A stretch of 64,000 nucleotides of DNA from a virus. Lineage: Duplodnaviria > Heunggongvirae > Uroviricota > Caudoviricetes. Below the pieces are notes generated by a model, which was not told the origin of the DNA, did not search any database, and saw nothing but the letters and a program-made list of their open reading frames with translations. A program made the translations under genes and the position numbers. Positions within the stretch are counted from its first letter, which is position 1. The number at the start of each line of letters is the position of its first letter. The stretch spans positions 70,287 to 134,286 of IMG/VR virus record IMGVR_UViG_3300042286_000208. One strand, given 5' to 3'. Positions 11,274 through 64,000 of this stretch are shown here, one piece after another.

Positions 11274-11610
11274 ATGGGAGAAGATATTATGAATGAAGAA
11301 AGATTGAAGGTATTGTTATACAATGCTCTGGTGTGTTTAGAAGAAAACGGATATGATATAGAACAACTAAAAGAATCCATTGGAATTAAATCTGATGAAT
11401 ATGAAGAGATTATGGATATTTAACTATGAAATATTATTATGGAAATAGTTATAAAGACGCACTCAGAAACGGTCCTGTTGAAATTAAAACCACAGATGCA
11501 CTGAGATCTTATGAAGAAAATTACAGTGTGGTAATACCTGCAGATGAGATTGATCTCGATGAAGATGATGAATCAGAAGAAATTGATTAAAAATAAAAGG
11601 AGGTCTAATT

Positions 11611-13146
11611 TTGAAATTAGTTTATTACAATAAAGACAAAAGTGAATTTCACAAAAAGAACGGTGAGTTCCAAGGAAACGAAATAACAAAAGAAAAAGTA
11701 TTCGGTAGAGTTGATAATGATTTAGCCTCGCTAGAGTTTACTGATATTAAAAGAAAATCTTTTCAAAAGGGTTCGATATTAGATCCTAACATTTTTGGAA
11801 ACTTCATGATGACCTCCAACTATAGTTGTAAATGCGGTATGACAACTGGATGGGTCAATGAAGGATTAAGCTGCAACCACTGCAACACAACAGTATTACC
11901 AGTGGGTACGAATTTAGAACAATGGGGGTTTATAGATTTAGATCCTTTTCATATTATATCTTATCCCAAATACTTTATATTAGAAAAGATAATTGGAATA
12001 AATGTTCTAAAAAGTATAATTAGAAAAAGTGATTTAATTAACTTAGATGGACAGGCAGTTGAACAAGATGACGATGGAACTTTTAAGAGGTTAAATGACG
12101 CATACCTTCAAACAAAGTTAAAAAATCATAATTATAAAAATCTAGGGTTGAAGAATTTCTATATTTACTATGAAGATATCATTAACTTTTATGCTAGAAA
12201 ATATATATCGAAACAATTTAACGTTGAGCTACCTGATGAATGGTGTTTGTATGATTTCCTATCCGATCCTAAAAATGAAGGAAAAGACATGAATATGTTT
12301 AAATCAGTGGCAACAAAAGAAGACGTATTCATTGATAAAATAATCGTAGCACCAATATCATTAAGACCTATACATAGAACAAAAGATGGTATACAACAGG
12401 ATGAGATGGGAAACCTATATACAAAGATCGTTGCTGAAAAAGTAATTCTTGACGGACACGACCATGTTTTAGATTCTTATATTGAAGAAGCTTTACTGAC
12501 TATCCAATTAAAATATTTTGAATTAGCAAACTATATTGTTAAAGACAAATTGGCTGGAAAAGAAGGTTACATCAGAGATAAGATTAATGGTACTAAACTT
12601 AACTATACAGCTCGTTTAATCTTGTCACCCTCAGATGTATCCAAATATAATGTCGGGGACTGTATACTGCCTTATTTTGTTGCTGTAAACTTTTTAAAAT
12701 ATGAGATCATCAGTATATTATCTTCAATTAAGAACATCAACTACCAAAAAGCATTAGATTATTATACTTTACATCAATATGATTTCAATCAAGAAATATA
12801 TTTGATTATGAAGAAGATTATATCTGATAATGAGGTTGGTGTATTATTAAACCGTGCTCCAACATTGAACTACGGTTCAGTAGTTTATTTAAAATTTGCT
12901 GATATAAAAGACATTTATGAAGATCAAACCTTAGCTGTACATCCATTGACATTCTCATTATATAACGGTGATGTTGATGGAGACGTTGTTACTATCGTTT
13001 TACTTCATGATAAAGAGTTGATCGAAAAAATGAAAAATTCTTTAGGTGTAGAACAAATGTTAACAGATCCCAATAATGGTAAATTGTCTAAAAAACTAAA
13101 TATTAGCAAAGACATTTTATATGGTCTGTGGAAACTTATAGGGTAG
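11611..13146 (+). CDS. multisubunit RNAP beta-prime subunit, N-terminal fragment
   Basis: Zinc-finger CKCG...CNHC; LLNRAPTL matches beta-prime NRAPTLH; YNGDVDGDVV is the catalytic NADFDGD motif; ends at equivalent of beta-prime LGLYY; TTG start with RBS aaaggagg. Confidence 0.8.
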   Translation: MKLVYYNKDKSEFHKKNGEFQGNEITKEKVFGRVDNDLASLEFTDIKRKSFQKGSILDPNIFGNFMMTSNYSCKCGMTTGWVNEGLSCNHCNTTVLPVGTNLEQWGFIDLDPFHIISYPKYFILEKIIGINVLKSIIRKSDLINLDGQAVEQDDDGTFKRLNDAYLQTKLKNHNYKNLGLKNFYIYYEDIINFYARKYISKQFNVELPDEWCLYDFLSDPKNEGKDMNMFKSVATKEDVFIDKIIVAPISLRPIHRTKDGIQQDEMGNLYTKIVAEKVILDGHDHVLDSYIEEALLTIQLKYFELANYIVKDKLAGKEGYIRDKINGTKLNYTARLILSPSDVSKYNVGDCILPYFVAVNFLKYEIISILSSIKNINYQKALDYYTLHQYDFNQEIYLIMKKIISDNEVGVLLNRAPTLNYGSVVYLKFADIKDIYEDQTLAVHPLTFSLYNGDVDGDVVTIVLLHDKELIEKMKNSLGVEQMLTDPNNGKLSKKLNISKDILYGLWKLIG

Positions 13147-40402: not shown

Positions 40403-42424
40403 ATGAAAGGAACTTTGATCAAAGTATACAATCACGACGATGAAACAGCTGTAATAGTATATCGTGATGAGAATTTACAGAAAAAGAAGATTGTTAAAAC
40501 AAATATGTTGGTCGATTATTTTCTTTTAAAAGAAGGTAACAGTCCAGATATATTTGTAGAACAAAAAAACACAGTTAGATTCGAAACACAATACAATAAC
40601 TTAGTGAATGATATAGTTGACAATCTAGACGTGGTTGATCCAGTGTTTAAGCAAAAAGCAGACGCCTATCTTAAACTCATTGATATAAATTATCAAGGAG
40701 ATGAGAGACTCAAGAAAAATATATTTAGGTTACCGGGGATATATGGTGCAGATGAACCTTTAGAAAACAGAGCTATTGAATGGTTCTATAATAACTTTGA
40801 AGAGGATATGAATTATAAACCGCACGAATATACAGCGTATTTCGATATAGAAAGTGATTTGATGTTCGATGGTAAAAAGAAAAGAAATGGTGCAATTGAT
40901 TTGATTAACACACCAGATCCGATAAACATCATATCACTATACTATCAAGACAACATGTATGTTTTTGCCTATAATTATGGGACTAGAAATCCATCATTTA
41001 AAGAATTCATAACAAACTTTCCAGAAATGAAGGATAAAATAATACAAAAAGTATATGAGAGAAATAACTCAACTTATGTAAGAAAAGGTAAGACCATCAA
41101 AGGTAAAGAGATAAAATTAGATGATATCAAGTTATATCTGTTCAGTACAGAAAATGAACTTATCAGAGGATTCTTCAATAAGCTTCATGAACTAGACCCC
41201 GATTTTCTTTTTGCTTGGAATGCTTCTTTCGACGTTAGAACTATATTCGGTAGAGCAGAAAAAACACAAAAAGAGATATTAAAGTTAGAGGGAGAAGAAC
41301 ACGGAAAGTATGATGTGCAGAAGTATACAAAATCCTATATATCAGATAGCAAATATTGTACTGACGAAGAAGGAAACTCCTTCCTACCAAACTATTATTA
41401 TTATATTAGTTCTGAAGGGGATTATACTGATGCCAAGAACAGAAGAGACTATTGTGAAATATGTGATGGTATAAACTGGCTAGATCAATTAATCATGCAC
41501 TCTATATTGAATAATAGCGAGGCCAACGATTCAGATGCACTTGATGCAGTAGCAAACGAAATGTTTGATATTGGTAAAATTGAATTTGAAATCGGTGAAA
41601 CAATATTCAATTTAGCTTGGTTGAATTACTTAAAGTTCTTTATATATAACATTCAGGACGTTATGTTGCTGAAAAAGATTGAACAAGAACTTCATAATGC
41701 AACAGAAGTATACGAACTATCGGCACTTTATAAGTGTCCGGCAAAAGATGCCTTCGCACAAACTAAATCAACAAAATCATTTATGTCTTATGAAGCTAAA
41801 AAAATTGGATACGTTTTAAGAAACAACGTAAATGCTTTATACAGCTCTTACAGAGATAGAACTAATGCAGCTAGAAAAGAATTTGACAATTCTTTCGGTA
41901 TGGATGTAAGAAGACAACTTCTAGAAGAAATAACTGGTTCCGATGAAAAACTTTTCAGAGTCATGTTAGATAAAGATAACTTTGGTGGTATTGTTGCCGA
42001 TAGCACTTTAAATACAAATAAAAATGGCATAGAGCTCTATGAGGGCATAAGAAGCAATAAGATATTCGGATCTTCATTCGACAAGGACTATTCATCTCTA
42101 TATCCTTCTACAAAGCATGCATTATCCATTGATGATGATGGTGCTGTGGCTAGATACGTTATATATGATGAAGAAATTCTGAAAAAACAAAGACAACGAG
42201 GTTATGAAAAAGCGTATACTTGGAAATCTAGCTCTAGCTTCAAAAAAGCTGATATTCAACCACACTGGGAATTAACAGATAGTGGTGATATCGAGGATCA
42301 AAATCTAATGATTAGATTGTGTGACTACTTGGCTTCTAAAACATTTTCTAAAATTGGGGAAGATTTTATGTCCTTACCTAATACAACAGAGTTAATAACA
42401 GAATTAATTAAAGGAGGAAAATAA
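40403..42424 (+). CDS. family B DNA polymerase, N-terminal part (3'-5' exonuclease domain through polymerase motif A)
   Basis: Exo I YFDIESD, Exo II AWNASFDVRTI, Exo III YNIQDVMLL, Pol motif A FDKDYSSLYPS; ends at TAA 42422-42424. Confidence 0.75.
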   Translation: MKGTLIKVYNHDDETAVIVYRDENLQKKKIVKTNMLVDYFLLKEGNSPDIFVEQKNTVRFETQYNNLVNDIVDNLDVVDPVFKQKADAYLKLIDINYQGDERLKKNIFRLPGIYGADEPLENRAIEWFYNNFEEDMNYKPHEYTAYFDIESDLMFDGKKKRNGAIDLINTPDPINIISLYYQDNMYVFAYNYGTRNPSFKEFITNFPEMKDKIIQKVYERNNSTYVRKGKTIKGKEIKLDDIKLYLFSTENELIRGFFNKLHELDPDFLFAWNASFDVRTIFGRAEKTQKEILKLEGEEHGKYDVQKYTKSYISDSKYCTDEEGNSFLPNYYYYISSEGDYTDAKNRRDYCEICDGINWLDQLIMHSILNNSEANDSDALDAVANEMFDIGKIEFEIGETIFNLAWLNYLKFFIYNIQDVMLLKKIEQELHNATEVYELSALYKCPAKDAFAQTKSTKSFMSYEAKKIGYVLRNNVNALYSSYRDRTNAARKEFDNSFGMDVRRQLLEEITGSDEKLFRVMLDKDNFGGIVADSTLNTNKNGIELYEGIRSNKIFGSSFDKDYSSLYPSTKHALSIDDDGAVARYVIYDEEILKKQRQRGYEKAYTWKSSSSFKKADIQPHWELTDSGDIEDQNLMIRLCDYLASKTFSKIGEDFMSLPNTTELITELIKGGK

Positions 42425-44427
42425 TGGAAGTCCAAACTTTTAAAGATAAATGAATGAGCGAACAGTTTGATAAAATAAAAGCTGTTGTTGGAAATGATTT
42501 CAGTGATGATCTGATAAGAGATCTACTTAAAAAACACTGGGATAAAAGAAAAGAACCTGCTCACACCTTTATGTTAACAAAAGACTCAGTATCGACATCC
42601 TCAGTTGAGAGCATGATTGATAGATTTCTAAACAGTAATTACATATTGTCTGCTTATGGTGTTATGTATAAACAACCCACCGAACATGTATCTATTTTTA
42701 ACGACGTTATATGGAAAGTAATTAAAGAGCGTAAAGATATTCGAAAATTTATTGCCAAACAACGTAAGGAAGTTGGCGAAGACTTTATGCTTAACCAATT
42801 TACTAGATATAACTCTAAGCAAAAAAACAGAAAGATTGTAGTTAATGCTGCATATGGTGTTATTGCATCATTTATCTCAGTATTCTTCAATAACGGTCCT
42901 CTAATGGCAAGCTCCCAGTGTTCTATTACCAAAACTGGTCAAACTCTGACCACGATCGCGATAAGCAATATCGAGAATTGGTTAGAAAACAATATAAGTT
43001 TCGATAATGTTAGTGATCTTCTAGACTATGTGGTTTGGTGTAAGAAATATTACTGGGAACATAAAGAAGTAAATGAGAAACACTTAGCCAAACTAAAAGA
43101 TGTAACTACCGAATATTTCATAGACTATTTGACATCAAAGTTAAAAGATCCAAAAAAAGTTGATATAAATTATCTGAAATTAGTTTCTCGAAGACTATCT
43201 GATATTGAGATTAAATCTATTTATTATAGAAATAATATACCAGCTATAATCGATCAAGATTATTGGTTTACTATGACTAAACTTATACTAGAATCTAGTG
43301 TAAAAGACAACATACCGGAAGAATTAGAGAACTATAATAGATATATGGCAGAGCTAGACGATTTTGTATTTCATACAACAGCGGTTGATTTCATTCATCC
43401 ACAGAGATATACAAGACAGTTTACTGAAACTAGAGATGCAGCAATCATTTCCGATACAGATTCCGTTTTCATTAGCGTACATAAATACTTAACTGACATT
43501 AAGAAATATTTTCATACAGATGTTATACCAGAAAGAGATTTAGATCTTAAGATTACTAAAATATTCATTCACATTAGTGATAGATATATTAAGTATGTTC
43601 TGGATGAATATCTTGATTTCATTCACGTTTCCGATGAAAGAAAAGGAGACATCAGCATGAAATCTGAGTTTGACTATAGCAAAATATTAGTAGACGGAAA
43701 GAAAACATATGCTGGTTGGAAGATTGGAGAACTATCTATCCCTCTTGGTGATGAGTCAGAAATTGACGTTAAAGGTCTATCAATCAAGAAGTCTACTGTC
43801 GTTAAGCAATTAAGAGAGAGTTTTAGTGATATACTTGAAAACAACGTATTAAATACAAACAGAATAGATACATTGGAAATATTATATAGGTTCGATAAGA
43901 TTGAAAATGATATCAGAACTAATTTACATGCAGGAAATACAACATATTTACAGCCAGCAAGTGTATCTGGTGATGGAGCATACGCTTTTCCAGAGAGAAT
44001 ACCTGCTTGGCGCGGAGTTCAAATATGGAACAATATACATCCTGAACAAACAATAGACTTACCGGGTCGTGTGATGCAAATTAGAATGAAACCGCTTGAT
44101 GACTATAGTTATCTAAGTGAAGAGTATCCTGAAGTCTATGAAAGAATTCAAGATATCTTGAACAACAGGGTAAATCTATTGGGTTCTAAATATGACGGAA
44201 ATTCTAAAATGAAGAGCAATAAACAAAATGTCCTTGATATTATATGTATACCTTATCAATTAGAAAAAATACCTGAGTGGATCATACCTTTAATAGATGT
44301 AGATCTAATTGTAGACAGGCTTATGAAACCAGGTCAATTTATTTTAAACGCCATTGGTGTAAGCACACCAGATGACTATGTGACCAACGTAGTTGACAGA
44401 AAAATTATAAACCAAATTTTGATTTAA
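42424..44427 (+). CDS. family B DNA polymerase, C-terminal part (motifs B and C)
   Basis: Motif B KIVVNAAYGV (KxxxNSxYG), motif C IISDTDSVFI (YGDTDS); ATG 42424 overlaps the upstream stop, RBS aggagg 8 nt upstream; different frame from part 1. Confidence 0.7.
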
Positions 44428-52379: not shown

Positions 52380-53024
52380 ATGAGTATATTACAAGAATAT
52401 GAAAGCATTAGAAAACGTCTAAAACCAGGCGAATTTGAAGCAATAGAAAGATATCTAGACATTAATACTGATATTCTTCTTTCTGATATATACTATAAAG
52501 AAGAAGAATACAAGAAATTCTTTGACTGGTGGAAAAAAGAATTATCATCAGAAGAAACCAAAGAAGTAAAAATTGACGAAAATATTCAAATATATGTTGA
52601 TGGTTCATATAATAAATCAAACAACCTGACTGGTGCCGGTGTAGTTATTATTTACGGTGACAAGGTATATAAAAAGTCTTTTATTGTTCCGACTGAAGAA
52701 GGTCATTCGTGGAATATAGATGGGGAATGTCATGCAACTCTAGAAGCTCTGAAAATATGCTCAGGGGAATCACTTATAGAGGAAACCAGAATAATAGCAA
52801 AAGATATAACAATAAATTATGATTATATGGGCATAGAGAAATGGGCAACCAGGGAATGGAAAGCCAAATCAGATATATCGAAGTTATATATAAAAGAATT
52901 TGATAAACTTATCGATAAGCATAATATTAATGTGAGTTTTAATAAGATTAAGGCTCATACGGGCGATAAATATAATGAGATCGCAGATGGCTTAGCATAT
53001 GGAGCAACACAAAAAGCTTCATAA
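52380..53024 (+). CDS. rnhA: ribonuclease H1 with N-terminal extension
   Basis: IYVDGSY, ECHATLEAL, INYDYMGIEKW, KIKAHTGDKYNEIADGLA match RNase H catalytic DEDD motifs. Confidence 0.7.
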   Translation: MSILQEYESIRKRLKPGEFEAIERYLDINTDILLSDIYYKEEEYKKFFDWWKKELSSEETKEVKIDENIQIYVDGSYNKSNNLTGAGVVIIYGDKVYKKSFIVPTEEGHSWNIDGECHATLEALKICSGESLIEETRIIAKDITINYDYMGIEKWATREWKAKSDISKLYIKEFDKLIDKHNINVSFNKIKAHTGDKYNEIADGLAYGATQKAS

Positions 53025-53056
53025 TAATAAAGGCATAATAATAAAGGAGATAGTAA

Positions 53057-53361
53057 TGGGCAAAAGAATAGATCCTATTATCGTTGAGAAAATCGTATCT
53101 CTTTTTAAGACTGATATGAATGATGGCGATATAGCAGGAGAGTTTAACGTTTCTGTTTCTTATGTAAATAAATTAAGAAATAATTACAAAAATTTTGAAG
53201 AAAACACAAAACCGTCTTTAGAAAAAGAGTTTGTTGTAGTAGAAGATACTTCGGCAATTGATGAGATTGATGTTTTAGAATTAAAAATAAACTCTTTGAA
53301 ACAAACTTTAAAATGGTATGAAGAGTTGTTAAGTATTAAAAAAGAAAAATTCAAAAAATAA
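53057..53361 (+). CDS. small HTH DNA-binding protein (sigma-70 region-4-like)
   Basis: DIAGEFNVSVSYVNKLR helix-turn-helix; RBS aaaggaga. Confidence 0.45.
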
Positions 53362-53644
53362 AATAAACTATAATAACAATCGCTGCGGTAACGCAGCACG
53401 CTTAGAGTAATTCTAAGTGTCCGTTGACAAAGATAAATCCTGTCATAAATCACGTGATAAAATATGAATCAAGTTTTATGAATTGTGTTTTATAGGCAGT
53501 AAAACCGGGTTAATGGGTATAAGGTTGGTGAGATCGATCGCCTCCTTTAGCCGACTTTAAAAATAAATAAAAACCAGGGTCTTTCCTTTTAAACCATGTT
53601 ATTATAGACATAAAAAAAATAAATATAGAAGAGGAGATATCGAT
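53362..53644 (+). other. GC-richer non-coding region with hairpins and a sigma70-like TTGACA
   Basis: gctgcg-gtaa-cgcagc perfect hairpin (53385-53400); TTGACA at 53426; gatcgcctcctttag resembling the 16S rRNA 3' end. Confidence 0.3.
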
Positions 53645-54304
53645 ATGTATTATTTAATTGTTGGTCCTACCTGCACGGGAAAGGACAAGATTGCAAACTA
53701 TATTGTAGAGAACTTTGAGAGTATAAAAACAATAACATCAACAACCTCAAGACCTATTAGACCAAAGGAAAAAGATGGTCAAGAATATTATTTTATTACA
53801 TCAGATGAATTTAGAAAAATATTAGATGAGGATGGTTTTGTTGAGTATAGAGTTTACAATACCACTGTAAAAGGTGTTCCAGATACTTGGTATTATGGGA
53901 TTGAGAAATCAAAAGTCTCTGATGAAGACAGTGATTACGTTGTAGTAATAGACTACAAGGGAGCTATGGAATTTGCTGAGTATTTCGGCAGAGAAAAATG
54001 TATTTTGATTTATGTCAAATCTTTATATTATGAAAGATATATAAGAAACATTTTAAGAGGCGATTTTGATAAATCAGAATGGTTAAGAAGAAACAAAGAA
54101 GACTCTAAATGGCTGAAACAAGCAGAGGAGTCAGCTGATATCATTATAGAAAACTATGGATACGATCATCCGCAAAATCCAAATCCTGATAGCTTAGGTA
54201 TAGACATTGTGGAATCTGATAGAGATGTTCAAAAAAATAGCTTTGAAGATACTAAAAATGAAATCATGAACATAATAGGACATCTATCAAAAAAGAATTT
54301 ATAA
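53645..54304 (+). CDS. guanylate kinase-like P-loop nucleotide kinase
   Basis: P-loop IVGPTCTGKD; TSTTSRPIRPKEKDGQEYYFITSDEFRKILDEDGFVEYRVY ~ Gmk [23 protein letters not shown]...EF(L/V)E. Confidence 0.6.
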   Translation: MYYLIVGPTCTGKDKIANYIVENFESIKTITSTTSRPIRPKEKDGQEYYFITSDEFRKILDEDGFVEYRVYNTTVKGVPDTWYYGIEKSKVSDEDSDYVVVIDYKGAMEFAEYFGREKCILIYVKSLYYERYIRNILRGDFDKSEWLRRNKEDSKWLKQAEESADIIIENYGYDHPQNPNPDSLGIDIVESDRDVQKNSFEDTKNEIMNIIGHLSKKNL

Positions 54305-54367
54305 AACTTATATATTATAGTGATGTATAAGTTCAAAATCATTATAATAGAAAAAGGAGAATAAAAC

Positions 54368-55168
54368 ATGGCAGATATATTAGAGAGAGCTTTAGATTGT
54401 GAACAAAATCTTATAGCTAGTATTTTAGAAGAAAATAGATCGTTAAAGGAAATAATAGATAATACAAAAAAACCACCAAAACCATTGACTTTAAAGGAAA
54501 AGAAAATGGTTTTATCAGAACTAAAGGAAATATACAATATAGAATTTGTTCAACAAAATGGTCAGCAACAGGTTATATTTTATTTTAATAGAATTAACTT
54601 GTATCTTGACCCAGGGACAAGAACAGGCGCTATTGAGTATAGAAAAATTCCCTTCTACTATTTATGGAAGTTGGGTTTTATTAATTTTAGAACATCAAAA
54701 TCAAAAGTGGTTATGACAATACATGATAGCGGTCTCACTAATTTTTATTCCGTTTATGAAAATGACAACCAAAAGAATTTTCATGACTGGGGTTTAAATT
54801 GTTGGGGAGGTTGGTCCACAGTGATAAATCAACTAATAACAGAAAAGAAATTTTATGATGCTGCACTACATATAGTTTCTAGAATGAAACAAGCCACAGT
54901 TAATGATGGAGTTTCTTCTTTTGAGAAAATGTGTCAGTTCCAATACGAGTCAAAACCTTATGTTCTTTTAAATGATCAAGAGGCTGAATTCTTTAAAGAC
55001 GAGATATGTTGGTTAACAGATAACAACCTTGAAAGGGAATCACCGGATATTAAAAATTTTGTAAAAGATACAGAAAATGATCTATATTATGTAGATATTC
55101 ATTTTAGGGGGAATAACTATAGACTAGCTATTTCAAATGAATCTTATGAAAGGATAGTGAGTAGATAA
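54368..55168 (+). CDS. conserved-Cys protein, paralog A of 57019-57894 (motif HDWGLNCWGGW); candidate E2-like or other thiol enzyme
   Basis: Shares H-D-x-G-[LI]-N-C-W-G-G-W-x(8)-L-x(7)-[RQ]-M-[KQ]-Q and upstream block with 57019-57894; lies in the E1/JAB cluster. Confidence 0.35.
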   Translation: MADILERALDCEQNLIASILEENRSLKEIIDNTKKPPKPLTLKEKKMVLSELKEIYNIEFVQQNGQQQVIFYFNRINLYLDPGTRTGAIEYRKIPFYYLWKLGFINFRTSKSKVVMTIHDSGLTNFYSVYENDNQKNFHDWGLNCWGGWSTVINQLITEKKFYDAALHIVSRMKQATVNDGVSSFEKMCQFQYESKPYVLLNDQEAEFFKDEICWLTDNNLERESPDIKNFVKDTENDLYYVDIHFRGNNYRLAISNESYERIVSR

Positions 55169-56323
55169 ATGTTATATGATAAAGCTTGTGCAATAGCTTT
55201 AATTAATAGAATACAATCAAACGGTCCTTTATATATTGAGGATCAGTACACAAAAAGTGATTATATATTCTATAAATTTAAGGGTTCAAATATAGCTGTA
55301 ACTAAAAAATTAAACCATCTAGATCTATCTATTCTTTCAGAAGAGGATCTAAATTATCTTTTGGATACAGTAACAAAAGAATTTATTGAGGAAAACGAAG
55401 AGGAATTTGAGAAACTATCTTTGCAATATTATTCTATAATAAAAAAATGGAATGACGAACACTCGATGATTTCAAAAATGTTTAAGTTTGTAAACAATAG
55501 CGCTTTGAATGACAGAACTCTAGTTGAGACAGAAAGAAAACTTTCGACGAATAAAGCTATTTTAGATTTATTACTAAACAATAGATTAACAATATTAAAA
55601 AACATTAGAGTTGTAGAAGAAGAAGATAATTCAATTACCTTAGATGTTAATATTGAAAAAAAATTAACAAGGGATCACAGAAATACATCGGACGCATTAA
55701 AAATAGAACTAATAGTTCAACCAACGGATTCCAACATAGAGGAATTTAGACGAGTAGTTTATCGTGAGATGGGAACTGATTTTGAAGAGAATTCTATATT
55801 TGTAAATAGAGTTAATCTATTAATTAGTATACTGATAGCTAAATATAATAGAAACACAACAAATGTACCATTTGATTTACATAAAACCAATTTATTCAGA
55901 ATCAAATCAAATAACCTAGTTAGTGACAGAGAAAATGATGAAATCTTTATGAGAAATTATAAAAATATCTTGATCGGTATTATCAACTCACCATCTAGTA
56001 GTATAATGCAAATGTTATTCGGTGGATATTATTATTACAGTATATGGGATCTAAGAAGAGGTATCGGAGATAATGTTGCTGATCTTGATATTGATTATGC
56101 TTCTATGTCGAATGAACATTTGATTATGTTCAGGGACTTAGTTACTTGGTTAATAAATAGACATGCTAGATACATCGGTGTAAACGAAAAAGATAGAGAA
56201 AGTTATTGTATGTATCTTGGTTCAAATATATTAAAAGGAAAAAAAGATACGAAGGAAGTTCTGACAAGACACTTAAATCTATCAGAAATGAATTCAGAAA
56301 TTCAAAGAAGACAAATAGGATAA
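55169..56323 (+). CDS. hypothetical protein, paralog A' of 57894-59027
   Basis: Shares EFIEENEEEFEKLS / EYIEENELLSEEDLEEKF region and similar length (384 vs 377 aa) with 57894-59027. Confidence 0.4.
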   Translation: MLYDKACAIALINRIQSNGPLYIEDQYTKSDYIFYKFKGSNIAVTKKLNHLDLSILSEEDLNYLLDTVTKEFIEENEEEFEKLSLQYYSIIKKWNDEHSMISKMFKFVNNSALNDRTLVETERKLSTNKAILDLLLNNRLTILKNIRVVEEEDNSITLDVNIEKKLTRDHRNTSDALKIELIVQPTDSNIEEFRRVVYREMGTDFEENSIFVNRVNLLISILIAKYNRNTTNVPFDLHKTNLFRIKSNNLVSDRENDEIFMRNYKNILIGIINSPSSSIMQMLFGGYYYYSIWDLRRGIGDNVADLDIDYASMSNEHLIMFRDLVTWLINRHARYIGVNEKDRESYCMYLGSNILKGKKDTKEVLTRHLNLSEMNSEIQRRQIG

Positions 56324-56335
56324 GGAGATAAAATA

Positions 56336-57007
56336 ATGGACTTAACAAAATTAGAAGCTTGGTTTAATCCAATTAAAATAACAAATACAATTACTGTGAT
56401 TGGATCTGGAGCTTTAGGCTCTTGGATGATTGAAGGTTTAGTTAGAATGGGATTTACAAATATTAACATTTATGATGATGATGTAGTAAATCCTCATAAT
56501 ATTAGCAATCAAAACTTTCTTGAGTCACAAATCGGCGAAGGAAAGATTGAGTGTATGATCGAAAGAGCTAAGGCTATCAACCCTTTTGTAAAAATCAATG
56601 GTCACGGAAGATATAACTTTGATAAAGACAACCCTAATTATTTATCTGGATATGTTTTCTTGTGTCTTGATAATATCGATACAAGACGTATGATTGTAGA
56701 AAACAACCCTTATGTTATGTTTTGGACAGATATCAGAATTGGTTTAGAAGAGGGTCAGGTATACTCTGCCTCTAGAAAAGAAAGACAAGACCTTCTAAAT
56801 ACAATGCAATGGAAACAAGATGATCCCGACAGAGTTGTTAAATTAAGTGCTTGTGGTAGAGAGTTGGGTATTCTCCCTACTGTTTGGTTGGTAATTAGTC
56901 AAGCATTAAATAATTTCGTTCTATACCTGAAACAAAACGAGGGCGAGAAAAACTTTAAAACTATTATTTCAGACTCAGTAGCTATGAAAACAGTGGCCTT
57001 CAAGTAG
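56336..57007 (+). CDS. ThiF/MoeB-type E1-like adenylyltransferase
   Basis: Rossmann ITVIGSGALGSW; YDDDVVNPHNISNQNF (E1 D.D.V..SNLNRQ); CLDNIDTR; C-terminal SACGRELGILPTVWLVISQALNNF matches MoeB cysteine-loop region. Confidence 0.7.
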   Translation: MDLTKLEAWFNPIKITNTITVIGSGALGSWMIEGLVRMGFTNINIYDDDVVNPHNISNQNFLESQIGEGKIECMIERAKAINPFVKINGHGRYNFDKDNPNYLSGYVFLCLDNIDTRRMIVENNPYVMFWTDIRIGLEEGQVYSASRKERQDLLNTMQWKQDDPDRVVKLSACGRELGILPTVWLVISQALNNFVLYLKQNEGEKNFKTIISDSVAMKTVAFK

Positions 57008-57018
57008 AGGTCACTGTC

Positions 57019-57894
57019 ATGGAAGAAAATAATAGAATAAATCTTTTTGATTCTGACATATTTTTTGATTCTATAGCTGAGAGAATGGATATTGTTGATG
57101 AATTAAAAAACAGACAACCTAAAGAAAAATTTAACGATAAAATTAGTTTTGTTGATAAATCTTTATTTAAAAGGGTTCTTAAGGATATAACCGATATAGA
57201 AGTTCAAGGAGAAACATTAAAAGTGTATTTCCTAAGGGGAGTTACAATGCATATTGATAGCGCCGGAACGAGTGTTGAAGAATATAACCAAAGAATCGTA
57301 AGAGAAGACTACAGAGTTCTTAAGATTATCGAAGAATTGGTAAATATGGGCGAAATAAGTTTGAGAACATCTCCATTTGTTGTTGAAATGAATAAGGATG
57401 ATTTGAGAGCACGTTACCATAGATCTTTAGATGAAGAAATTATGGGTTGGGATGCTATTAAAAATTTACATGATGAAGGAATTAATTGTTGGGGCGGCTG
57501 GGGTGGTCCGGTTAGATCGAACTATGACAGTCTTAATATGGAAAACAGTTTAATGTTCATGACACAAAGAATGCAACAGCTTAACATCGATGATTTTTCA
57601 GGTGATGTAAATAGAATGTCTGCTCTAATTGTCAATGTTTATAAAAATAAACCTCTCGTTATAAACCCAATTATTTTGGCTAGACTTGTTGTTGAGTATG
57701 ACTTAGATAGAAGGGTTATAGAGGACGAGGATTATGCTTACTTCAGTAAAGATTTTCGGAGTAAAAATCTAAATATCTTACTCGGCGTTAAGACTAATAT
57801 CGATTATTCTATATTTGTTGGTCTGGTTAAAAAAATTAGAGATACACATAGCGGCGAAAAAACTAAGATTAAATTGAAAAGAAGTGATACATAA
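57019..57894 (+). CDS. conserved-Cys protein, paralog B (motif HDEGINCWGGW)
   Basis: See 54368-55168. Confidence 0.35.
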   Translation: MEENNRINLFDSDIFFDSIAERMDIVDELKNRQPKEKFNDKISFVDKSLFKRVLKDITDIEVQGETLKVYFLRGVTMHIDSAGTSVEEYNQRIVREDYRVLKIIEELVNMGEISLRTSPFVVEMNKDDLRARYHRSLDEEIMGWDAIKNLHDEGINCWGGWGGPVRSNYDSLNMENSLMFMTQRMQQLNIDDFSGDVNRMSALIVNVYKNKPLVINPIILARLVVEYDLDRRVIEDEDYAYFSKDFRSKNLNILLGVKTNIDYSIFVGLVKKIRDTHSGEKTKIKLKRSDT

Positions 57895-59027
57895 TGGCAA
57901 AAGTTTTTAAAATAGACAAGACATCAAAAAAGAAAATAATAGCAGCTTATGATGTATATCATCTTGATTCAAAAATATTATATGTGGTAGACTCTTATAG
58001 AAAAGGAATTTATAATGTATATACTTTTTCAGATAATTTTCATATAGGTATAAACATTGATGGAGATACAATTAACCAAGTATTCATTAAACCAGATATA
58101 GAAAACATTGCCACAGAACGATATTCAGAATTAGAAAAAGAATATATTGAAGAAAATGAATTGCTAAGCGAAGAAGACCTAGAGGAAAAATTTAAAAATG
58201 CTAGTATGAAAATAAACCTAGCAATAGAGGAATTCATAACCAGAAAAAACTTATATAACAACTATAAGATAGCTAAAGAAAATCAAATTAAAGCTTTAAA
58301 AGGAAGACTAACAAACAGAATAAAAGAAGAGGAAGATCTTATTGAGAGAATGAGAAGCAAAAAAATGCGATTCGTATTAACTGGAACAGAACCTTCTTCA
58401 AATGTAAATGTTGATTTAAAAATATCGGCATATCTAGTAAACAACAACACTGGAAGACCGTTTTTAAGCTGGTCAATCAGTAAAAATAGAGAGAATCTAG
58501 ACAAGTTGTTAAACAATACAAATGCTATTTTCCCTAATGATGAATTAGCTAGGGCACTATATGAGTATATCGTGATAACAACATACTACATAGATAACGA
58601 ATCTTTATTTGAAAATCTTTTTAGTACAGTTGAATATGTCGCTAATGAAGAAGATGCTATAAATTCTCTTCGTCGTTTATTTGAGCGTGATCCTCGATAT
58701 CGAGGAGATATGCGTGCAATTCATAAACCTATAAGAGAAACATATAGGGTTCAAGAAGAAATAAGATCTGGTCTACGTCCTAGAATTTTAAATTATGATT
58801 TGATTGATGATATTGATCATCTCAATAGAATCTATAATTTATATTTATTATTGGTAGAGAGACATAAAAAATATATCACCACTCAGATTAAAGATATAGA
58901 ACAAGATTTCTTCGGTTTGAATGTTCCTTTAGCTGGGTCAAAATCTACGAAACAGATTTTAAATAGTGTTCTTCAAATAGAAAGATTATCTGAAAGAATT
59001 AGAATATTAGAAGAACAAAACAACTAA
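57894..59027 (+). CDS. hypothetical protein, paralog B'
   Basis: See 55169-56323; start overlaps upstream stop. Confidence 0.4.
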   Translation: MAKVFKIDKTSKKKIIAAYDVYHLDSKILYVVDSYRKGIYNVYTFSDNFHIGINIDGDTINQVFIKPDIENIATERYSELEKEYIEENELLSEEDLEEKFKNASMKINLAIEEFITRKNLYNNYKIAKENQIKALKGRLTNRIKEEEDLIERMRSKKMRFVLTGTEPSSNVNVDLKISAYLVNNNTGRPFLSWSISKNRENLDKLLNNTNAIFPNDELARALYEYIVITTYYIDNESLFENLFSTVEYVANEEDAINSLRRLFERDPRYRGDMRAIHKPIRETYRVQEEIRSGLRPRILNYDLIDDIDHLNRIYNLYLLLVERHKKYITTQIKDIEQDFFGLNVPLAGSKSTKQILNSVLQIERLSERIRILEEQNN

Positions 59028-59106
59028 AAATATACAACATCTCCTCCAGATAATGTTATAGAATACAATTATCTGGAGAAGATAAATATAAACTAATCGT
59101 TTTTAT

Positions 59107-59119
59107 TTATATATTATAA
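59107..59119 (+). promoter_or_regulatory. class-2 motif TTATATATTATAA upstream of JAB gene
   Basis: Copy of recurrent 13-mer, 51 nt before start 59170. Confidence 0.4.
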
Positions 59120-59169
59120 GTTTGAATTAAAGAAATATTTTTAACAAAAAAGAAAGAGAGGGCAAGCAA

Positions 59170-60351
59170 TTGAATCAAGAAAACGAAAAAGTGAACAAGA
59201 CAGAAGAAAAAGATCTGGCATATCTTCTTGGTATTGAGGCTTTTAAAGAAATATTAAGAGCATCTAATCAAGATAAAGATCCGTCAACAAAAAGAACTCT
59301 GTTAGATGATCCCGAAATCGTATTTGAATATTTATATTTAGAAATACCCACAAATCATCCAACAAAAGTAGGAGAAGAAGTCATTCTTATTGAAGAAGAC
59401 AGAGTTGGATTCTTAAAAGGTTGGGAAGAGGAAGAAGAAAAATATCAACTTCAAATAGATGCTGAAATTGAAGAGGCTTATAGATCTAAGGAATTATACC
59501 CTAGAGAGGGTATTTTTACCTTTGACAATGATTCCGGTAAAAAAGATGAAAAGGCTTACGACTATAGCAAATATAGATATGTGGAGCCTAAACTTATCTA
59601 TGATAGGTTCAATAAGGTTGAGACATCTACTAAAAAAATAGTTTTTCCCAAAGATTTATCTGAGTTATTTTGGAACATATTTCAAACCGCATCGGGCAAA
59701 GAAATCATGTTTTATGGAGAAATGATACAATCTGAAGAAGATAAAGATCTATACACTGTCTCAGGTATGAATTTCCCACCACAAAAAAATTATGGTGGTT
59801 ATGTAGAGACTGTTGATGGAAAATATGAAACATGGGTATTTAATGAAATTATACTTAAAGGAAAAAAGATTCCTCTGCATGTTCATACTCATCCAGATTT
59901 TAGTGCTTTCTCATCATCTGTTGACGAAAGACAAATTAAACAATATATTGAAGATAACGAAGGAAACCCTTTTGTTGTTCAACTAATAGTATCTAACCCT
60001 AGAAAAGGCAGCTATTTTATTAGATGGTTTGATTTAGAGAATGATACATGGGAAAGACCTAATGTGGAATTTACTTTTGATAAATATGATGTAGAAGCTG
60101 AATTCCCAGGAATATTCCAATTTGATGCACCACCTAGAGTCACAAGTTCTCCTTCGTCGAGACTTAGTGATTTCAACTATAAGTCTTGGTATAGTGACTT
60201 CAAAGGTAGAGGTTTCTATGAAGATGACGAAGATGAAGATCATGAAGAAGCTAAAGACTTATATCATGATGAAGATGGTGAAGACTTGTCAGATCCAAAA
60301 GAATTCGACAAATATTTTAGCAAGAATTATAAAAAATTAATTAAAAATTAA
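59170..60351 (+). CDS. JAB/MPN(+) JAMM-family metalloprotease
   Basis: Perfect JAMM motif H-T-H-PDFSAFS-S-SV-D (HxHx7Sx2D) in HVHTHPDFSAFSSSVD with upstream Glu; acidic C-terminal tail. Confidence 0.7.
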   Translation: MNQENEKVNKTEEKDLAYLLGIEAFKEILRASNQDKDPSTKRTLLDDPEIVFEYLYLEIPTNHPTKVGEEVILIEEDRVGFLKGWEEEEEKYQLQIDAEIEEAYRSKELYPREGIFTFDNDSGKKDEKAYDYSKYRYVEPKLIYDRFNKVETSTKKIVFPKDLSELFWNIFQTASGKEIMFYGEMIQSEEDKDLYTVSGMNFPPQKNYGGYVETVDGKYETWVFNEIILKGKKIPLHVHTHPDFSAFSSSVDERQIKQYIEDNEGNPFVVQLIVSNPRKGSYFIRWFDLENDTWERPNVEFTFDKYDVEAEFPGIFQFDAPPRVTSSPSSRLSDFNYKSWYSDFKGRGFYEDDEDEDHEEAKDLYHDEDGEDLSDPKEFDKYFSKNYKKLIKN

Positions 60352-60367
60352 AAGGAGAAAATAGAAT

Positions 60368-61111
60368 ATGTATACAGAACAGATTGATCTACCTGCATTA
60401 CTTAGACAGATTTTAACAAATTTCTTGATGTCTATCGCTTCTGGTAATTCAGTTGATGCTTTTATTTCTAATAGTGTGGAAGTTAGAAGATTATTAACAG
60501 AATTTGATGAATTAAGAGATCAAAATGCTACTATGAGAGAAACTATATCATCTTTAGAAGATCAACTAAATAGAGCTACTGATATCATGACAGCACAAGA
60601 AGAAAGAATGAATAGAAACACAAATCAAGAAGCAGTATCTTTACTCCTAAGAGCTGTTGAAATTTTAGGTGGAACCTCTGAACCATCAGAAGTAGTATAC
60701 CAAACAGGAGAACAAATACATGAGACCGTTCAATCAGCACAGGAAGTAGAACCAATTACAGCTTCTGATATCGATGATTTCGATGATATGTATGAATCTG
60801 ATGAAGTTGAAGATGAAAATTTAGTTTCTGAAGATAGTGTCCTTGAAGATGAGGATCTTGATAGTCTTTATAGTGATGAATTTGATTTAGAAGATGAGGA
60901 TCTAGAGGAAGAGGATGTAGTCCAACCAACACAAGAGATTGTAATAACTAAACATCCTGAAATCACAGATAACTTTGTTAATCCTAGAGATCCACATATG
61001 AACACACTTATCTTTGTTAGATATTCACACCTTCCATATCATTATATTTCTGAAGGAATCAGATATAAATTAGTATTGAATGGGAGCGAAATTGTTTCAT
61101 CAAGAGTTTAA
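60368..61111 (+). CDS. hypothetical acidic coiled-coil protein
   Basis: 247-aa ORF, E/D-rich middle. Confidence 0.45.
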   Translation: MYTEQIDLPALLRQILTNFLMSIASGNSVDAFISNSVEVRRLLTEFDELRDQNATMRETISSLEDQLNRATDIMTAQEERMNRNTNQEAVSLLLRAVEILGGTSEPSEVVYQTGEQIHETVQSAQEVEPITASDIDDFDDMYESDEVEDENLVSEDSVLEDEDLDSLYSDEFDLEDEDLEEEDVVQPTQEIVITKHPEITDNFVNPRDPHMNTLIFVRYSHLPYHYISEGIRYKLVLNGSEIVSSRV

Positions 61112-61166
61112 TTTAAATCAACAAGGGGTATAATATATGATCGAATATCATACCCCTAAAAATATT

Positions 61167-61177
61167 TTATATATTAT
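61167..61177 (+). promoter_or_regulatory. class-2 motif TTATATATTAT upstream of 61256
   Basis: Copy of recurrent motif; followed by A13 tract and strong RBS caggagga. Confidence 0.4.
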
Positions 61178-61255
61178 TAAGTTGTATTAAAAGAGGAATT
61201 ATGTTAATATAACATAATATTCTCAAAAAAAAAAAAAACAGGAGGATTCAAAATT

Positions 61256-61474
61256 ATGGTAGTTTATGTAGGTACAGCATTTAACAATTCACAAGTAGAG
61301 GTAGCTCCAACATCTGTTAGAGTTAGCGAATTAGGATTAACAGGTACAGTCACCCTTAACGGTATAGTTCTTCTTAACGTTGGGCAAACTGTACAATCAG
61401 CAATCGATTCAACTGGAGCTCAAGCTCCATATTATTTCTTATCAGTTAGCAAACAAGCTAATGGCGGGAAATAA
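61256..61474 (+). CDS. small protein ending in GGK; candidate ubiquitin-like beta-grasp (ThiS/MoaD-like) modifier
   Basis: 72 aa; C-terminus ...SKQANGGK; internal TVTLNGIVLL resembles the ThiS v.vNgeiv strand; strong RBS; codon usage GC-richer than neighbours. Confidence 0.3.
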   Translation: MVVYVGTAFNNSQVEVAPTSVRVSELGLTGTVTLNGIVLLNVGQTVQSAIDSTGAQAPYYFLSVSKQANGGK

Positions 61475-61503
61475 TTAAAAGTTAAAAAATAAATAGTATA
61501 GAA

Positions 61504-61545
61504 TAGGGAATCTTCGATCAGATTCCCTATGATACTGTTTTACTT
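61504..61545 (+). terminator. terminator hairpin tagggaatc/gattcccta plus T-rich tract
   Basis: 9-bp perfect inverted repeat followed by tgatactgttttactttaatc. Confidence 0.5.
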
Positions 61546-62345
61546 TAATCATCAAAAATATTACTAATTTAATCTTTGTTTTAATAACAGATAATAACCC
61601 TGTTTGCGGACTGCAAGCAAGGAATTAAGGTCGGGATGACCGAAGTTACACGGGTGTTGACAATTGTTAATATTAGAAAATAATTAACGCCGCGGGTGAA
61701 GCTGCATTAATATTAGTTCTAGAACTTTTACGATTCGGTTATTTTAAATTTATAAATTTTAAACCAGGAATCTCTTCAGTTTTTCTAGATTTGTTACAGG
61801 ATCCAGGACGACCGAGTGACATATTTATGGGATTGGACCTTTATAATTTTAAGAAACAGGATGGACACTGCAAAGATTCATTTGGATCCAGATACATTTG
61901 GTGGATTACAACAGATTTATCTTGACTTTTCCCCATATTTAAGTTAAAATATATGTCTGGCAGATGATTGTCTCCAAGACAAATCGCCATTGCAGGTTGC
62001 CTCCATGTAACAAGGAGGATAAATTTTTTCGAAATGAATGCCAGTATCCTCAGTTCCGAATCTATATTTTGGATATGGATGTAACAGCTGGTTTATTTTA
62101 TTTCGCTAGAACATCGATGCACAATTCATTATTTCTTGAATGAGAAGACGTAGCGTCTACAGTTTTTTGCCTGATGCGCTTAATTATTTTTAAATTTAAC
62201 CCAGGCCAGGGTAATTTTGTGCAAGCTCATCACCATGATCCAGAAGGATATTTAAATTTATTTATTGGAGCACGTACTCCGTCATCCTATTATATTACAT
62301 AAATTAGTAAAAAAAATTAGAATTTAAAAAATTCAGAAAAGAAGG
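61546..62345 (+). ncRNA. long GC-richer non-coding region upstream of RT (candidate retron-type ncRNA or other RT-associated RNA)
   Basis: No ORF of 60 aa or more on either strand; about 38% GC; 11-nt TTACTAATTTA (61561-61571) is exactly complementary to TAAATTAGTAA (62300-62310) just upstream of the RT RBS. Confidence 0.3.
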
Positions 62346-62354
62346 TTGACTTAT

Positions 62355-63533
62355 ATGTCTAAGCAAAGTTATTATTATATTAAAAGTAGACCTTATAATG
62401 AAATGTTATGGTGGAAAAGCCATGGCAAAAGTCCGTTTGTAAATTTTATCGAGTTTAAACCAATTACAAAATGGTCCAAATTTAGATTAAACAAAGACTT
62501 TGACAAAAAAATAGATGATATATATGCTATTCATCAAATCATTAAAGATCTACCAGAATACAGATTTTATAATTCTTCAACAAAAGAATATTATATTAGA
62601 AACACACCCACTAATACTTTTAGACTAAGAAAAAGAAAAGGTGGATATAGAGAAATTACTGTATTCTCTGAAGAATACAAACAGATGCACTCTATGCTTA
62701 TGGAAATATATCAGGATTTATTTCCGGCATTTCCTGAGTCAACAAGTGCTTACATCAAAGGAAAATCACAACTAGATACAGTAAAAAAACATAAGGATGC
62801 TAAAGTTCATTTGTCATTAGACTTGGCTGAATTTTATCCTTCTATTAAAACAGAAAATTTAGCTTCTGTTCTTAAAAGTTTGGCAATTGTTGTTGCAAAC
62901 ATGACTGAAATCTCTATTGATAGACTTGCTGAGATATCCACATTTGGTGGATCTTTAGCGCAGGGAAGTTCTATCAGCCCTATTCTATCAAACATATTTT
63001 CTTTACCTTTGGACTATGAGCTATACGAGTATGTTAAAAATACTAACATTACATATACAAGATATGCTGATGATATTAGTTTATCTAGTCCCAATATTAT
63101 TGCATTACCAAGAAAGAAAGAGTTGGAGCCATTCGTAAATCGTTTTCAAGAAAGACTTGATAGATTATATGGTGGGGATCTAAAAATTAATAAATCAAAA
63201 ACAAAATTACAGTTTGAAGGTCAGATCAAAGTATTGGGTATATGTATCAATCATGATGAATCCGGAGAAGCACACTTAAGTGTTGGCAAATCCAGAAAAC
63301 AAGAATACGGTAGAGAACTATTTCAATTACTTTGTGAAATAGCTGACGATCAAGTAGATGACAAACTAATTGACTATCAAACAGTAAGAGGTAAGATTGA
63401 ATATTTAAAACAGTTTGAGCCAATTTGGTTTGAAAAGCAACAAAGTAAATTAAGAGTAACTTTTAATTTTACAGGGGATGTTTGGAGATATATATTAAGC
63501 AGAATAACAATCCCAGAAACAGAAAATGAATAA
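62355..63533 (+). CDS. reverse transcriptase, retron/Abi/DRT-like, RT domain only
   Basis: RT motifs RKRKGGYREITVFS (1), HLSLDLAEFYPSIK (A, F/YPSI typical of retron-type RTs), AQGSSISPILSNIF (B', QGxxxSP), YTRYADDISLSS (C), IKVLGICIN (VTG-like). Confidence 0.75.
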   Translation: MSKQSYYYIKSRPYNEMLWWKSHGKSPFVNFIEFKPITKWSKFRLNKDFDKKIDDIYAIHQIIKDLPEYRFYNSSTKEYYIRNTPTNTFRLRKRKGGYREITVFSEEYKQMHSMLMEIYQDLFPAFPESTSAYIKGKSQLDTVKKHKDAKVHLSLDLAEFYPSIKTENLASVLKSLAIVVANMTEISIDRLAEISTFGGSLAQGSSISPILSNIFSLPLDYELYEYVKNTNITYTRYADDISLSSPNIIALPRKKELEPFVNRFQERLDRLYGGDLKINKSKTKLQFEGQIKVLGICINHDESGEAHLSVGKSRKQEYGRELFQLLCEIADDQVDDKLIDYQTVRGKIEYLKQFEPIWFEKQQSKLRVTFNFTGDVWRYILSRITIPETENE

Positions 63534-64000
63534 AGAATAGCATCGTTTCAAAATAACAAAAAATAACGATCTTTTGTTTAATACAAAAACGAGCACAATA
63601 CATCTTATGTAAATAAGATGAAAATAAAGTTGGGATGACGTACAACGTCATCGATATCTAGATGACCAATCTCTTCGAAGTTTGTTGATTAATTACCAGG
63701 AGCTGGCGCGTAAATTTTTTTATTTCGACACGGCGACTTTAAAGTATACAGCTTCCCAGGTTTTCGAGAAAGAGATCTACTCAACTAGGGATACTTTGCC
63801 AGTAATAAGGGGCACCTCGATAAGGTCATGTATTCCCACACGAATACCTTAACCAAGTTGGGCATACAATAATAAAAAAAAAAAATTACCGGGGTCCCTT
63901 CAGAGTTTTCTTCAGTTTTCGCGAACGCCAATCAGGGTGAAAGGGTGCTAAGAATCTTAAGCCTCTAACAACGTTGGCCGAAGTCAACTTTATGAAACTC
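63534..64000 (+). other. GC-richer non-coding region downstream of RT, continuing past window end
   Basis: No ORF; hairpins catctta/taagatg and gatgacgt-aca-acgtcatc; CCWGG-like motifs. Confidence 0.3.

Follow-up and report, generated by a model that had tools for sequence, protein, structure and literature searches.

What is a compact set of genes that resembles a ubiquitin-type conjugation pathway doing on a phage genome, and how does it relate to the reverse transcriptase (RT) gene that lies just downstream? The locus that raises this question lies near the 3′ end of a 64,000-nucleotide (nt) stretch of the IMG/VR virus record IMGVR_UViG_3300042286_000208 (positions 70,287 to 134,286; Caudoviricetes), referred to below as the window. 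A preliminary description, made from the letters of the sequence, had placed an E1-like enzyme, a JAB/JAMM peptidase, two paralogous gene pairs, and a 72-residue candidate ubiquitin-like protein (Ubl) at 54368-61474. All eight open reading frames (ORFs) were found at these coordinates on the plus strand, from the first E2-like gene, A1, through the 72-residue ORF, but the bounds proposed for the cluster overlooked a downstream retron, consisting of an RT gene and a putative noncoding RNA (ncRNA), beyond 61474. The best reading of the locus is a new retron type that has a thioester-type Ubl conjugation module as its partner, and we give a probability of roughly 0.6 to a phage-borne composite in which a retron is joined to a complete thioester-type Ubl conjugation pathway. 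The observations that carry this reading are gene content, protein folds, catalytic residues, covariation of an RNA helix, and conserved linkage. The features of the locus are as follows (lengths in amino acids, aa).

54368-55168, plus strand: A1, first E2-like (UBC/RWD-fold) paralog, 266 aa, with HDWGLNCWGGW; from A2 paralogy, family invariants, and a profile match
55169-56323, plus strand: B1, partner of A1, 384 aa, helical, possibly a specificity or E3-like adaptor; from B2 paralogy
56336-57007, plus strand: minimal E1-like adenylating enzyme of the ThiF family, 223 aa, with Cys173; from Pfam ThiF, PADLOC, and PDB
57019-57894, plus strand: A2, second E2-like paralog, 291 aa, with H151, C157, N189, and D192
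57894-59027, plus strand: B2, partner of A2, 377 aa, paralog of B1; from sequence comparison
59170-60351, plus strand: JAB/JAMM metallopeptidase, 393 aa, extended at the N-terminus and with an acidic tail; from motif and PADLOC
60368-61111, plus strand: X, 247 aa, coiled-coil and acidic, with a conserved C-terminal domain
61124-61157, no strand assigned: terminator-like hairpin separating X from the Ubl gene
61256-61474, plus strand: predicted Ubl, beta-grasp, 72 aa, with a conserved SKQ[AS]NG end and then the two-residue tail GK
61503-61530, plus strand: terminator-like hairpin 3′ of the Ubl gene, with an 11-bp perfect stem that is kept in relatives
61561-62310, plus strand: retron-like ncRNA, about 750 nt; from the a1/a2 helix, covariation, and fold
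62355-63533, plus strand: retron-type RT with a YADD active site; from Pfam, PADLOC, and PDB

Linkage of E1 and RT across phage lineages

The preliminary description had proposed looking for the cluster in related phages, and its gene order is indeed kept in seven or more metagenome contigs. The whole order, from a guanylate kinase gene through A1, B1, E1, A2, B2, JAB, X, and Ubl and then across about 0.9 kb of noncoding sequence to the RT, is repeated in contigs L004-L008, L012, L014, L016, and L017. With this many contigs in agreement, the arrangement is not due to chance, and the cluster is real and under selection. Identity among these relatives is 85-90% for E1, Ubl, and RT and only 38-70% for A, B, and X, a pattern that would fit a conserved core with diversifying specificity factors.

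A second, simpler type of cassette occurs elsewhere. The closest E1 among GenBank phages (33% identity) is on MT835544.1 (L001), a human-faecal phage scaffold whose cassette encodes, in order, a 141-aa protein (P130), a 78-aa Ubl, a 491-aa protein, JAB, and E1, followed by about 300 nt of noncoding sequence and an RT. The same simple cassette surrounds the E1 homologs P0052 (L009) and P0047 (L011), and in L011 the 491-aa-type E2-like protein is fused to JAB. In four divergent lineages, with E1 identities of 33-42%, the E1 and RT genes are neighbors.

A metagenome scan with the E1 alignment recovered at least 536 relatives, from which 80 loci were kept; their sources include human gut and rumen samples, and the contigs reach 301 kb. 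Loci were annotated with hidden Markov models (HMMs) built from our own alignments; those counted for linkage number 79, with 64 distinct E1 sequences. Of 59 loci with enough flanking sequence, 57 have an RT that starts less than 2 kb downstream of E1; JAB is adjacent in 65 of 67; and 40 of 42 contain the full set of JAB, E2-like protein, Ubl, and P130. Pairing of a retron with a Ubl module is common in gut phages.

Several further observations concern these loci. A subset of gut-phage cassettes carries an extra ORF of about 270 aa, without a Pfam match, in the interval between E1 and the ncRNA (L021 7707-8516, and also L019-L039, L022, and L093). On L001, about ten paralogous ORFs of roughly 85-100 aa at 1928-12280 end in C-x-C-x-SLL or C-x-SLL (…ECFCVSLL, …CCCNSLL), C-termini that are CaaX-box-like. 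By tblastn, 24 Bacteroides phage records match the E1. Distant E1 homologs also occur in cultured phages, namely Flavobacterium phage FpV4 (L003 5707-7642) and Xanthomonas phage PhiXhv-12 (L002 7001-7684), where they are annotated as “thiamine biosynthesis protein”; in FpV4 a JAMM protein lies directly upstream, and no JAB was detected beside E1 in the Xanthomonas jumbo phages.

A retron-type RT and its putative ncRNA

The RT ORF is listed from a TTG at 62346, with the ATG at 62355 as the likely start. Its product matches Pfam RVT_1 (2.8e-20) and, over its full length, the PADLOC retron models RT_II-A (2.5e-42) and RT_III-A (9e-42), and its best PDB matches are the retron RTs Ec83 (5e-15), Ec78, Ec67, and Ec86 (range 5e-15 to 2e-12). 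The catalytic residues, YADD among them, do not vary in any of 48 sequences. These matches place the RT in the retron clade, as far as sequence comparison can assign it. A group II intron origin was rejected on the basis of an Rfam scan of 53000-64000, in which neither a retron nor a group II intron nor any other family was matched, apart from a chance small nucleolar RNA hit (E = 0.33); origin in a diversity-generating retroelement was rejected as well, with no template/variable repeat pair found. In one relative (L008 16185-16400) an in-frame stop follows about 20 N-terminal RT codons and the call for the gene begins only at 16397, which may reflect a pseudogene, recoding, or an assembly error.

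The 870 nt from the Ubl gene to the RT hold no conserved ORF. In relatives, a block at each end of this interval, 5′ and 3′, is conserved, and the roughly 600 nt between the two blocks are hypervariable. An 11-nt arm in the 5′ block, a1 (61561-61571, TTACTAATTTA), pairs at 11 of 11 positions with a2 in the 3′ block (62300-62310, TAAATTAGTAA), which lies 44 nt before the RT start, and the minimum-free-energy fold of the ncRNA closes on this helix (z = -3.1). The helix is maintained where its sequence changes: the arms are TTTTAACTTA with TAAGTTAAAA in L008 and L012 and AAACTAATTTA with TAAATTAGTT in L016, and L007 has a G·U pair. Across five distinct variants, 91% of cells are paired, with double substitutions at four pairs; the covariation score was reached by 3 of 500 shuffles, and it collapses when the register is slid. 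Hairpins resembling those of an msr, at about 61574-61622 and directly after a1, survive recoding, and hairpin 2 is fully recoded in L008. The a1/a2-closed ncRNA can be described as a putative retron msr-msd architecture.

The simple cassettes have corresponding elements. Their a1/a2 arms are 8-11 nt long and 250-340 nt apart, with 7-35 nt separating the end of the 3′ arm from the RT gene; arms of at least 8 nt are found in 47 of 62 simple loci, against a mean of 6.2 in shuffled sequences. The arms occur in 25 distinct sequences, which amounts to covariation on a large scale, and in 22 of the 25 a1 variants a G follows directly, at the position of the retron branching guanosine.

The ncRNA interior (61650-62290) is nearly unalignable among relatives whose Ubl and RT are 85-90% identical, and it has more G+C-rich segments than its surroundings. 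An RNase H gene lies three genes upstream of the cassette (window 52380-53024, plus strand) in the order RNase H, an ORF of about 120 aa, guanylate kinase, A1, and the same order from RNase H to A1 is seen in L004, L006, and L008 (RNase H at 5908-6555, 1016-1678, and 6060-6506, respectively). Maturation of retron multicopy single-stranded DNA (msDNA) normally requires RNase H, so this gene may be functionally part of the system.

E1, JAB, and Ubl

The E1 matches Pfam ThiF with E = 2.1e-20 and 73.3 bits, compared with a curated cutoff of 28.1. Its best PADLOC matches are E1-E2 models of CBASS (cyclic-oligonucleotide-based antiphage signaling systems), down to 8e-14; its PDB matches are ThiF-type proteins, TcdA, Uba1, and Cap2, and its best structural relative is PDB 9egc. 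Of the two motifs reported for it earlier, GSGALGS is present, but the second string was slightly garbled and the true sequence is DDDVVNPHNISNQN. The glycines of the Rossmann loop (G23, G25, and G28 of GxGxxG) are conserved, and 12 sequences from five lineages share the invariants G23, G25, D47, D49, N55, Q59, K70, D112-N113, R117, D132, R134, and C173. By analogy with MoeB, we take the Asp, Lys, and Asp-Asn residues to be ATP/Mg2+ ligands. C173 lies within an SACG…G[IV].PT loop in 12 of 12 sequences, those of FpV4 and the Xanthomonas phages among them. The 223-aa protein is thus best described, from its residues, as a predicted minimal ThiF/E1 enzyme with an invariant Cys.

The HxHx7Sx2D motif reported for the JAB protein fits exactly (HTHPDFSAFSSSVD), and all 54 aligned homologs keep E178, H239, H241, S249, and D252. 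Scores against library HMMs are weak (Pfam Prok-JAB E = 0.14, below cutoff; PADLOC JAB E = 1.2e-4). The window JAB is homologous to the L001 JAB, and it would be expected to trim the Ubl tail or to deconjugate.

For the 72-aa protein, AlphaFold predicts the beta-grasp fold of a Ubl, with a floppy tail (predicted local distance difference test, 83.7), which bears out the earlier suggestion. The GGK terminus on which that suggestion drew is present, but its Gly-Gly is not conserved, as relatives end in NG, NGSK, NGKE, NGKN, or NGKK. What is retained, in fifteen Ubl homologs, is SKQ[AS]NG, at which four stop and after which the others add GK, SK, KN, KK, or KE; a tail-less gene was confirmed in one case, internal to its contig. 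In the simple cassettes the Ubl ends in K-x-[DGNE]-[NSGC]-[AG] plus 0-5 residues, most commonly as …KADNA-stop. Over more than 40 distinct sequences, the C-terminus takes the form [N/S/G]-[G/A], after which come 0-5 variable residues, and a conserved small terminal residue with an optional variable extension is the signature expected of a peptidase-matured Ubl. Profile comparison makes the window Ubl homologous end to end with the simple-cassette small proteins (E = 3.6e-4); when the 72-aa Ubl was compared with that of L001 directly by BLASTP, no match was obtained, and the homology is seen with profiles only.

E2-like proteins and their partners

A1 and A2 are paralogs (BLASTP E = 2e-13), and the HD.G[LI]NCWGGW block noticed in both is invariant in all members of the A family, as part of the longer set N.HD.G.NCWGGW…RM.Q….D. 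Their fold matches belong mostly to the UBC/RWD/UEV superfold (Knl1, Spc24/25, Listerin, the RNF25 RWD, FANCL, and VPS37A) and include the E2 enzymes E2S, UbcH7, Ubc12, UBE2F, E2-J2, and Pex4. The invariant H151, C157, N189, and D192 come after four strands and flank a helix. In UbcH5, the arrangement is HPN…Cys…helix…N..D, which the layout of A1 and A2 appears to resemble by analogy, although they lack the HPN tripeptide and their His-to-Cys spacing is 6 rather than 10. The A family shares the exact spacing H-x5-C-x31-N with the gut-phage E2-like proteins, in which H, C, and N are conserved in 47-49 of 50 homologs. Alignment of A1/A2 with the C-terminal domain of the 470-490-aa simple-cassette protein by hhalign has a probability of 80% and E = 1.4e-5; an earlier comparison of the A family with the gut-phage E2-like proteins, from small alignments, had given E = 0.034, and larger alignments raised the significance.

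Neither A1 nor A2 has a match in Pfam (UQ_con and Prok-E2 included), PHROG, or PADLOC. Out of 1.84 billion representative proteins, the A family accounts for just 21 clusters; a tblastn search of phages with A2 found nothing, and a fold search with A2 against viral structures gave no significant match. The earlier comparison of these Cys proteins with E2 enzymes therefore stands in part: a weak UBC/RWD fold and the invariant H-x5-C…N..D speak for it, but they match no E2 family in sequence. We call them E2-like, and not E2 family members, because the likeness in fold and layout comes without a family profile match; the models weakly suggest proteins that are E2-like in these two respects and that lie outside every described E2 family.

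B1 and B2 are also paralogs, as the preliminary description had held (BLASTP 2e-5 over the C-terminus), and their families, with relatives included, align end to end. They diverge fastest, with 46-49% identity in relatives where E1 is 90% identical, and they have no match in Pfam, PHROG, PADLOC, or PDB. A relationship of the B family to P130 or to the N-terminal part of the gut-phage E2-like protein was ruled out, as no homology was found. X holds the slot directly upstream of the Ubl gene, as P130 does in the simpler cassettes, and profile comparison detected no homology between X and P130.

In six loci Ubl and P130 are fused head to tail (L045 4116-4736, L048 30-662, L072 4012-4620, L087 516-1181, L093 3872-4513, and L095 4141-4749), with a junction of …K[AIMT]DNA followed by A…. 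Unfused loci have the reverse order, with P130 (about 130 aa) and then Ubl. The fusion may be likened to a ubiquitin fusion precursor, and these fusions make P130 the strongest candidate for direct partner or target in the simple cassettes. At L090 707-2254, a mirror-like duplication, Ubl-P130-P130-Ubl, stands upstream of the E2-like gene.

Genomic setting

The window has a GC content of 30% and encodes a split PolB, DnaB, and SbcCD. It also encodes pieces of a multisubunit RNA polymerase, about 32% identical to those of Staphylococcus, Listeria, and Yersinia jumbo phages. It is best read as an expanded cassette variant from a jumbo-type phage. Deposited phages include no DNA-level relative of the window, and an E1-based scan of IMG/VR produced no confirmed relative. 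The neighborhood of the cassette consists of replication and nucleotide-metabolism genes. DNA polymerase B is seemingly split into two adjoining ORFs (673 and 657 aa; window 40403-44427), and relatives of the window carry a ribosomal protein S21 homolog (L004 660-893) and an FtsH-like AAA+/M41 protease (L008 3788-6058) near replication genes.

Weighing the composite against alternative readings

Several points weigh against a retron joined to a thioester-type conjugation pathway. On the retron side, the ncRNA of the window lineage is about three times the known retron length (about 650-745 nt, with 644-744 nt from a1 to a2, versus about 250-340 nt in the simple cassettes), and its a1 is followed by ATCTTTG, so that the first G comes 7 nt later and none stands immediately 3′. 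The RT is absent from two of the 59 gut loci, and neither the E1 and JAB of FpV4 nor the E1 of the Xanthomonas jumbo phages has an RT within 7 kb. On the conjugation side, neither homologs nor folds could be detected for B1, B2, and X. Further, the preliminary description had named loss of the ATP-binding arginine finger and of the Cys as evidence against an E1; the invariant Cys173 is retained, but the N-terminal arginine finger (RY.RQ in MoeB/ThiF) is absent, with just about 20 residues before the Rossmann loop. The invariant R117 and R134 might substitute for it.

We have considered four other readings, based on sulfur-carrier chemistry, simple juxtaposition, MccB-like chemistry, and a group II intron or diversity-generating retroelement, and find all of them less likely. 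The one that survives best, although we regard it as unlikely, is an E2-independent pathway, either SAMP/TtuB-like or a sulfur-carrier system of the ThiS/MoaD/CysO/QbsE kind, in which the Ubl would be adenylated and then thiocarboxylated or conjugated directly by E1, and A1, A2, B1, and B2 would be unrelated phage proteins. However, about 90 loci contain no rhodanese, cysteine desulfurase, PP-loop ATPase, or sulfur-acceptor enzyme, and the Ubl ends in N-A or N-G, with terminal Ala frequent, rather than in GG. Of 42 complete cassettes, 40 encode the H…C…N protein, which in L011 forms a fusion with JAB, and the linear Ubl-P130 fusions suggest partners at the protein level.

Two independent modules, a Ubl system and a stand-alone retron, could also lie side by side in an accessory region without being coupled, which we judge to be more doubtful still. 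The Ubl gene of the window does have its own promoter-like and terminator elements, some phages carry E1 (with JAB in FpV4) without an RT, and the two gut loci without an RT point the same way. Against this, E1 is followed directly by the RT in 57 of 59 loci, over 64 distinct E1s and several phage backbones; the linkage persists even though gene order has been completely reshuffled between the window-type and simple cassettes; and no other retron effector gene is present beside the RT. Last, peptide-nucleotide synthesis like that of MccB, itself a ThiF-family enzyme, with E1 adenylating a C-terminal Asn of the small protein, would account for the Asn strongly conserved near the Ubl C-terminus but is highly improbable, because natural tail-less variants end in N-G or N-A and so leave this Asn penultimate, and also given that Ser, Gly, or Cys replaces it in several lineages and that the carrier is a folded beta-grasp protein of 72-95 aa, not a short peptide.

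Relation to described systems

The conjugation arm has counterparts in bacteria. Bil and CBASS Cap2/Cap3 combine a cysteine-based E1 and E2 with a JAB, as is predicted for the present arm. Bil (BilA, Ubl; BilB, E2; BilC, JAB; BilD, E1) is a bacterial anti-phage defense operon without an RT or ncRNA, whereas the present system is encoded by phages, its E1 is a minimal protein of 220 aa, its Ubl ends in N-G or N-A, and its E2-like proteins, without a known E2 sequence match, are duplicated, each with a partner. Type II CBASS is similar in that the present E1 scores best against CBASS E1-E2 models and matches Cap2 structures, that a JAB serves as antagonist or processing enzyme, and that conjugation machinery is tied to a polymerase-type enzyme of nucleic acids or nucleotides. 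It differs in having no separate Ubl, as the C-terminus of the cGAS/DncV-like nucleotidyltransferase (CD-NTase) is itself conjugated, and in having a fused E1-E2; its partner is a cGAS-like nucleotidyltransferase, and that of the present system is an RT. Bub, too, has a diverged E1, an E2, a Ubl, and a JAB-type peptidase, and its Ubl is freed from a fusion by the peptidase of the operon, which can be compared with the Ubl-P130 and E2-like-JAB fusions described here. Bub is reported to proceed by way of oxyester intermediates, with an E1 devoid of the catalytic cysteine (Ye et al. 2024, PMC11601596), whereas the present E1 and E2-like proteins keep invariant cysteines. An RT is not known to accompany Bub.

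Like retrons of types I-XIII (Mestre et al. 2020, PMC7736814), the present system has a retron-clade RT, an ncRNA immediately upstream with a1/a2 repeats, a G after a1 (in the simple cassettes only), and accessory genes that are tightly linked to the RT and covary with it. Unlike them, it is found on lytic-looking phage genomes, and its msDNA is putative. The classification of types I-XIII never mentions ubiquitin, ThiF, JAB, or MoeB. Among phages, the lambda-type TAPI/TAPK pair (Iyer et al. 2006, PMC1779556) also comprises a Ubl with a C-terminal Gly and an adjoining JAB, TAPK (JAB-NlpC/P60), predicted to process it; this pair belongs to a tail-gene module and lacks an E1, an E2-like protein, and an RT.

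The view that the system had not been described agrees with the literature searched: a full-text collection, with subscription journals outside its scope, yielded neither a description of it nor a link between retrons and Ubl, ThiF, or JAB. The components are familiar, and what is new is their obligate coupling, the phage location, and the duplicated E2-like/adaptor architecture of the window. Judged by sequence, the Ubl and the E2-like proteins appear to fall outside any described Ubl or E2 family. The coupling to a retron is the most unusual feature of the locus.

Proposed mechanism and significance

From these data we infer a series of biochemical steps, together with a target and a possible role in competition between phages or in counter-defense. 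JAB would remove the short variable tail of the Ubl, exposing a C-terminal Gly or Ala, and in relatives it would cut the Ubl-P130 fusions. The minimal E1 would adenylate the exposed residue and take the Ubl onto Cys173 as a thioester, from which the Ubl would move to the invariant Cys of A1 or A2; the fast-evolving B1 and B2 would steer each E2-like enzyme to its target, and JAB may also reverse conjugation. The RT and its ncRNA/msDNA would be an obligate partner, most likely as a sensor or scaffold that controls conjugation, or else as the substrate complex. Control by RT-msDNA is proposed by parallel with retrons, in which RT-msDNA restrains an effector, and with type II CBASS, in which E1-E2 and JAB tune a nucleotidyltransferase. 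A third candidate role, beside competition and counter-defense, would be modification of the phage's own RT complex.

A more specific form of this proposal, which we put forward tentatively and at a little short of even odds, is that gut, rumen, and jumbo-type phages carry an unrecognized class of retron whose partner is a Ubl conjugation cascade and not a toxin, with RT-msDNA either licensing conjugation or serving as its substrate. The tagged protein could then be, for example, P130, the RT, or a protein of the host or of a competitor phage. The two fast-evolving E2-like/adaptor pairs in the window suggest target diversification.

Retrons and bacterial Ubl conjugation (Bil, CBASS Cap2/Cap3, and Bub) are active topics in the study of phage-bacterium conflict that have been treated as unrelated, and this cassette unites both, on the virus side of that conflict. 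If the coupling is functional, it would provide a new effector or regulatory logic for retrons, a very compact E1/E2/Ubl set for mechanistic work (a 220-aa E1 and a 72-aa Ubl), and a testable case of phages using Ubl conjugation on proteins of the host, of rival phages, or of their own RT complex. Reverse transcription would then be directly linked to ubiquitin-type signaling, in a form wielded by viruses rather than by their hosts.

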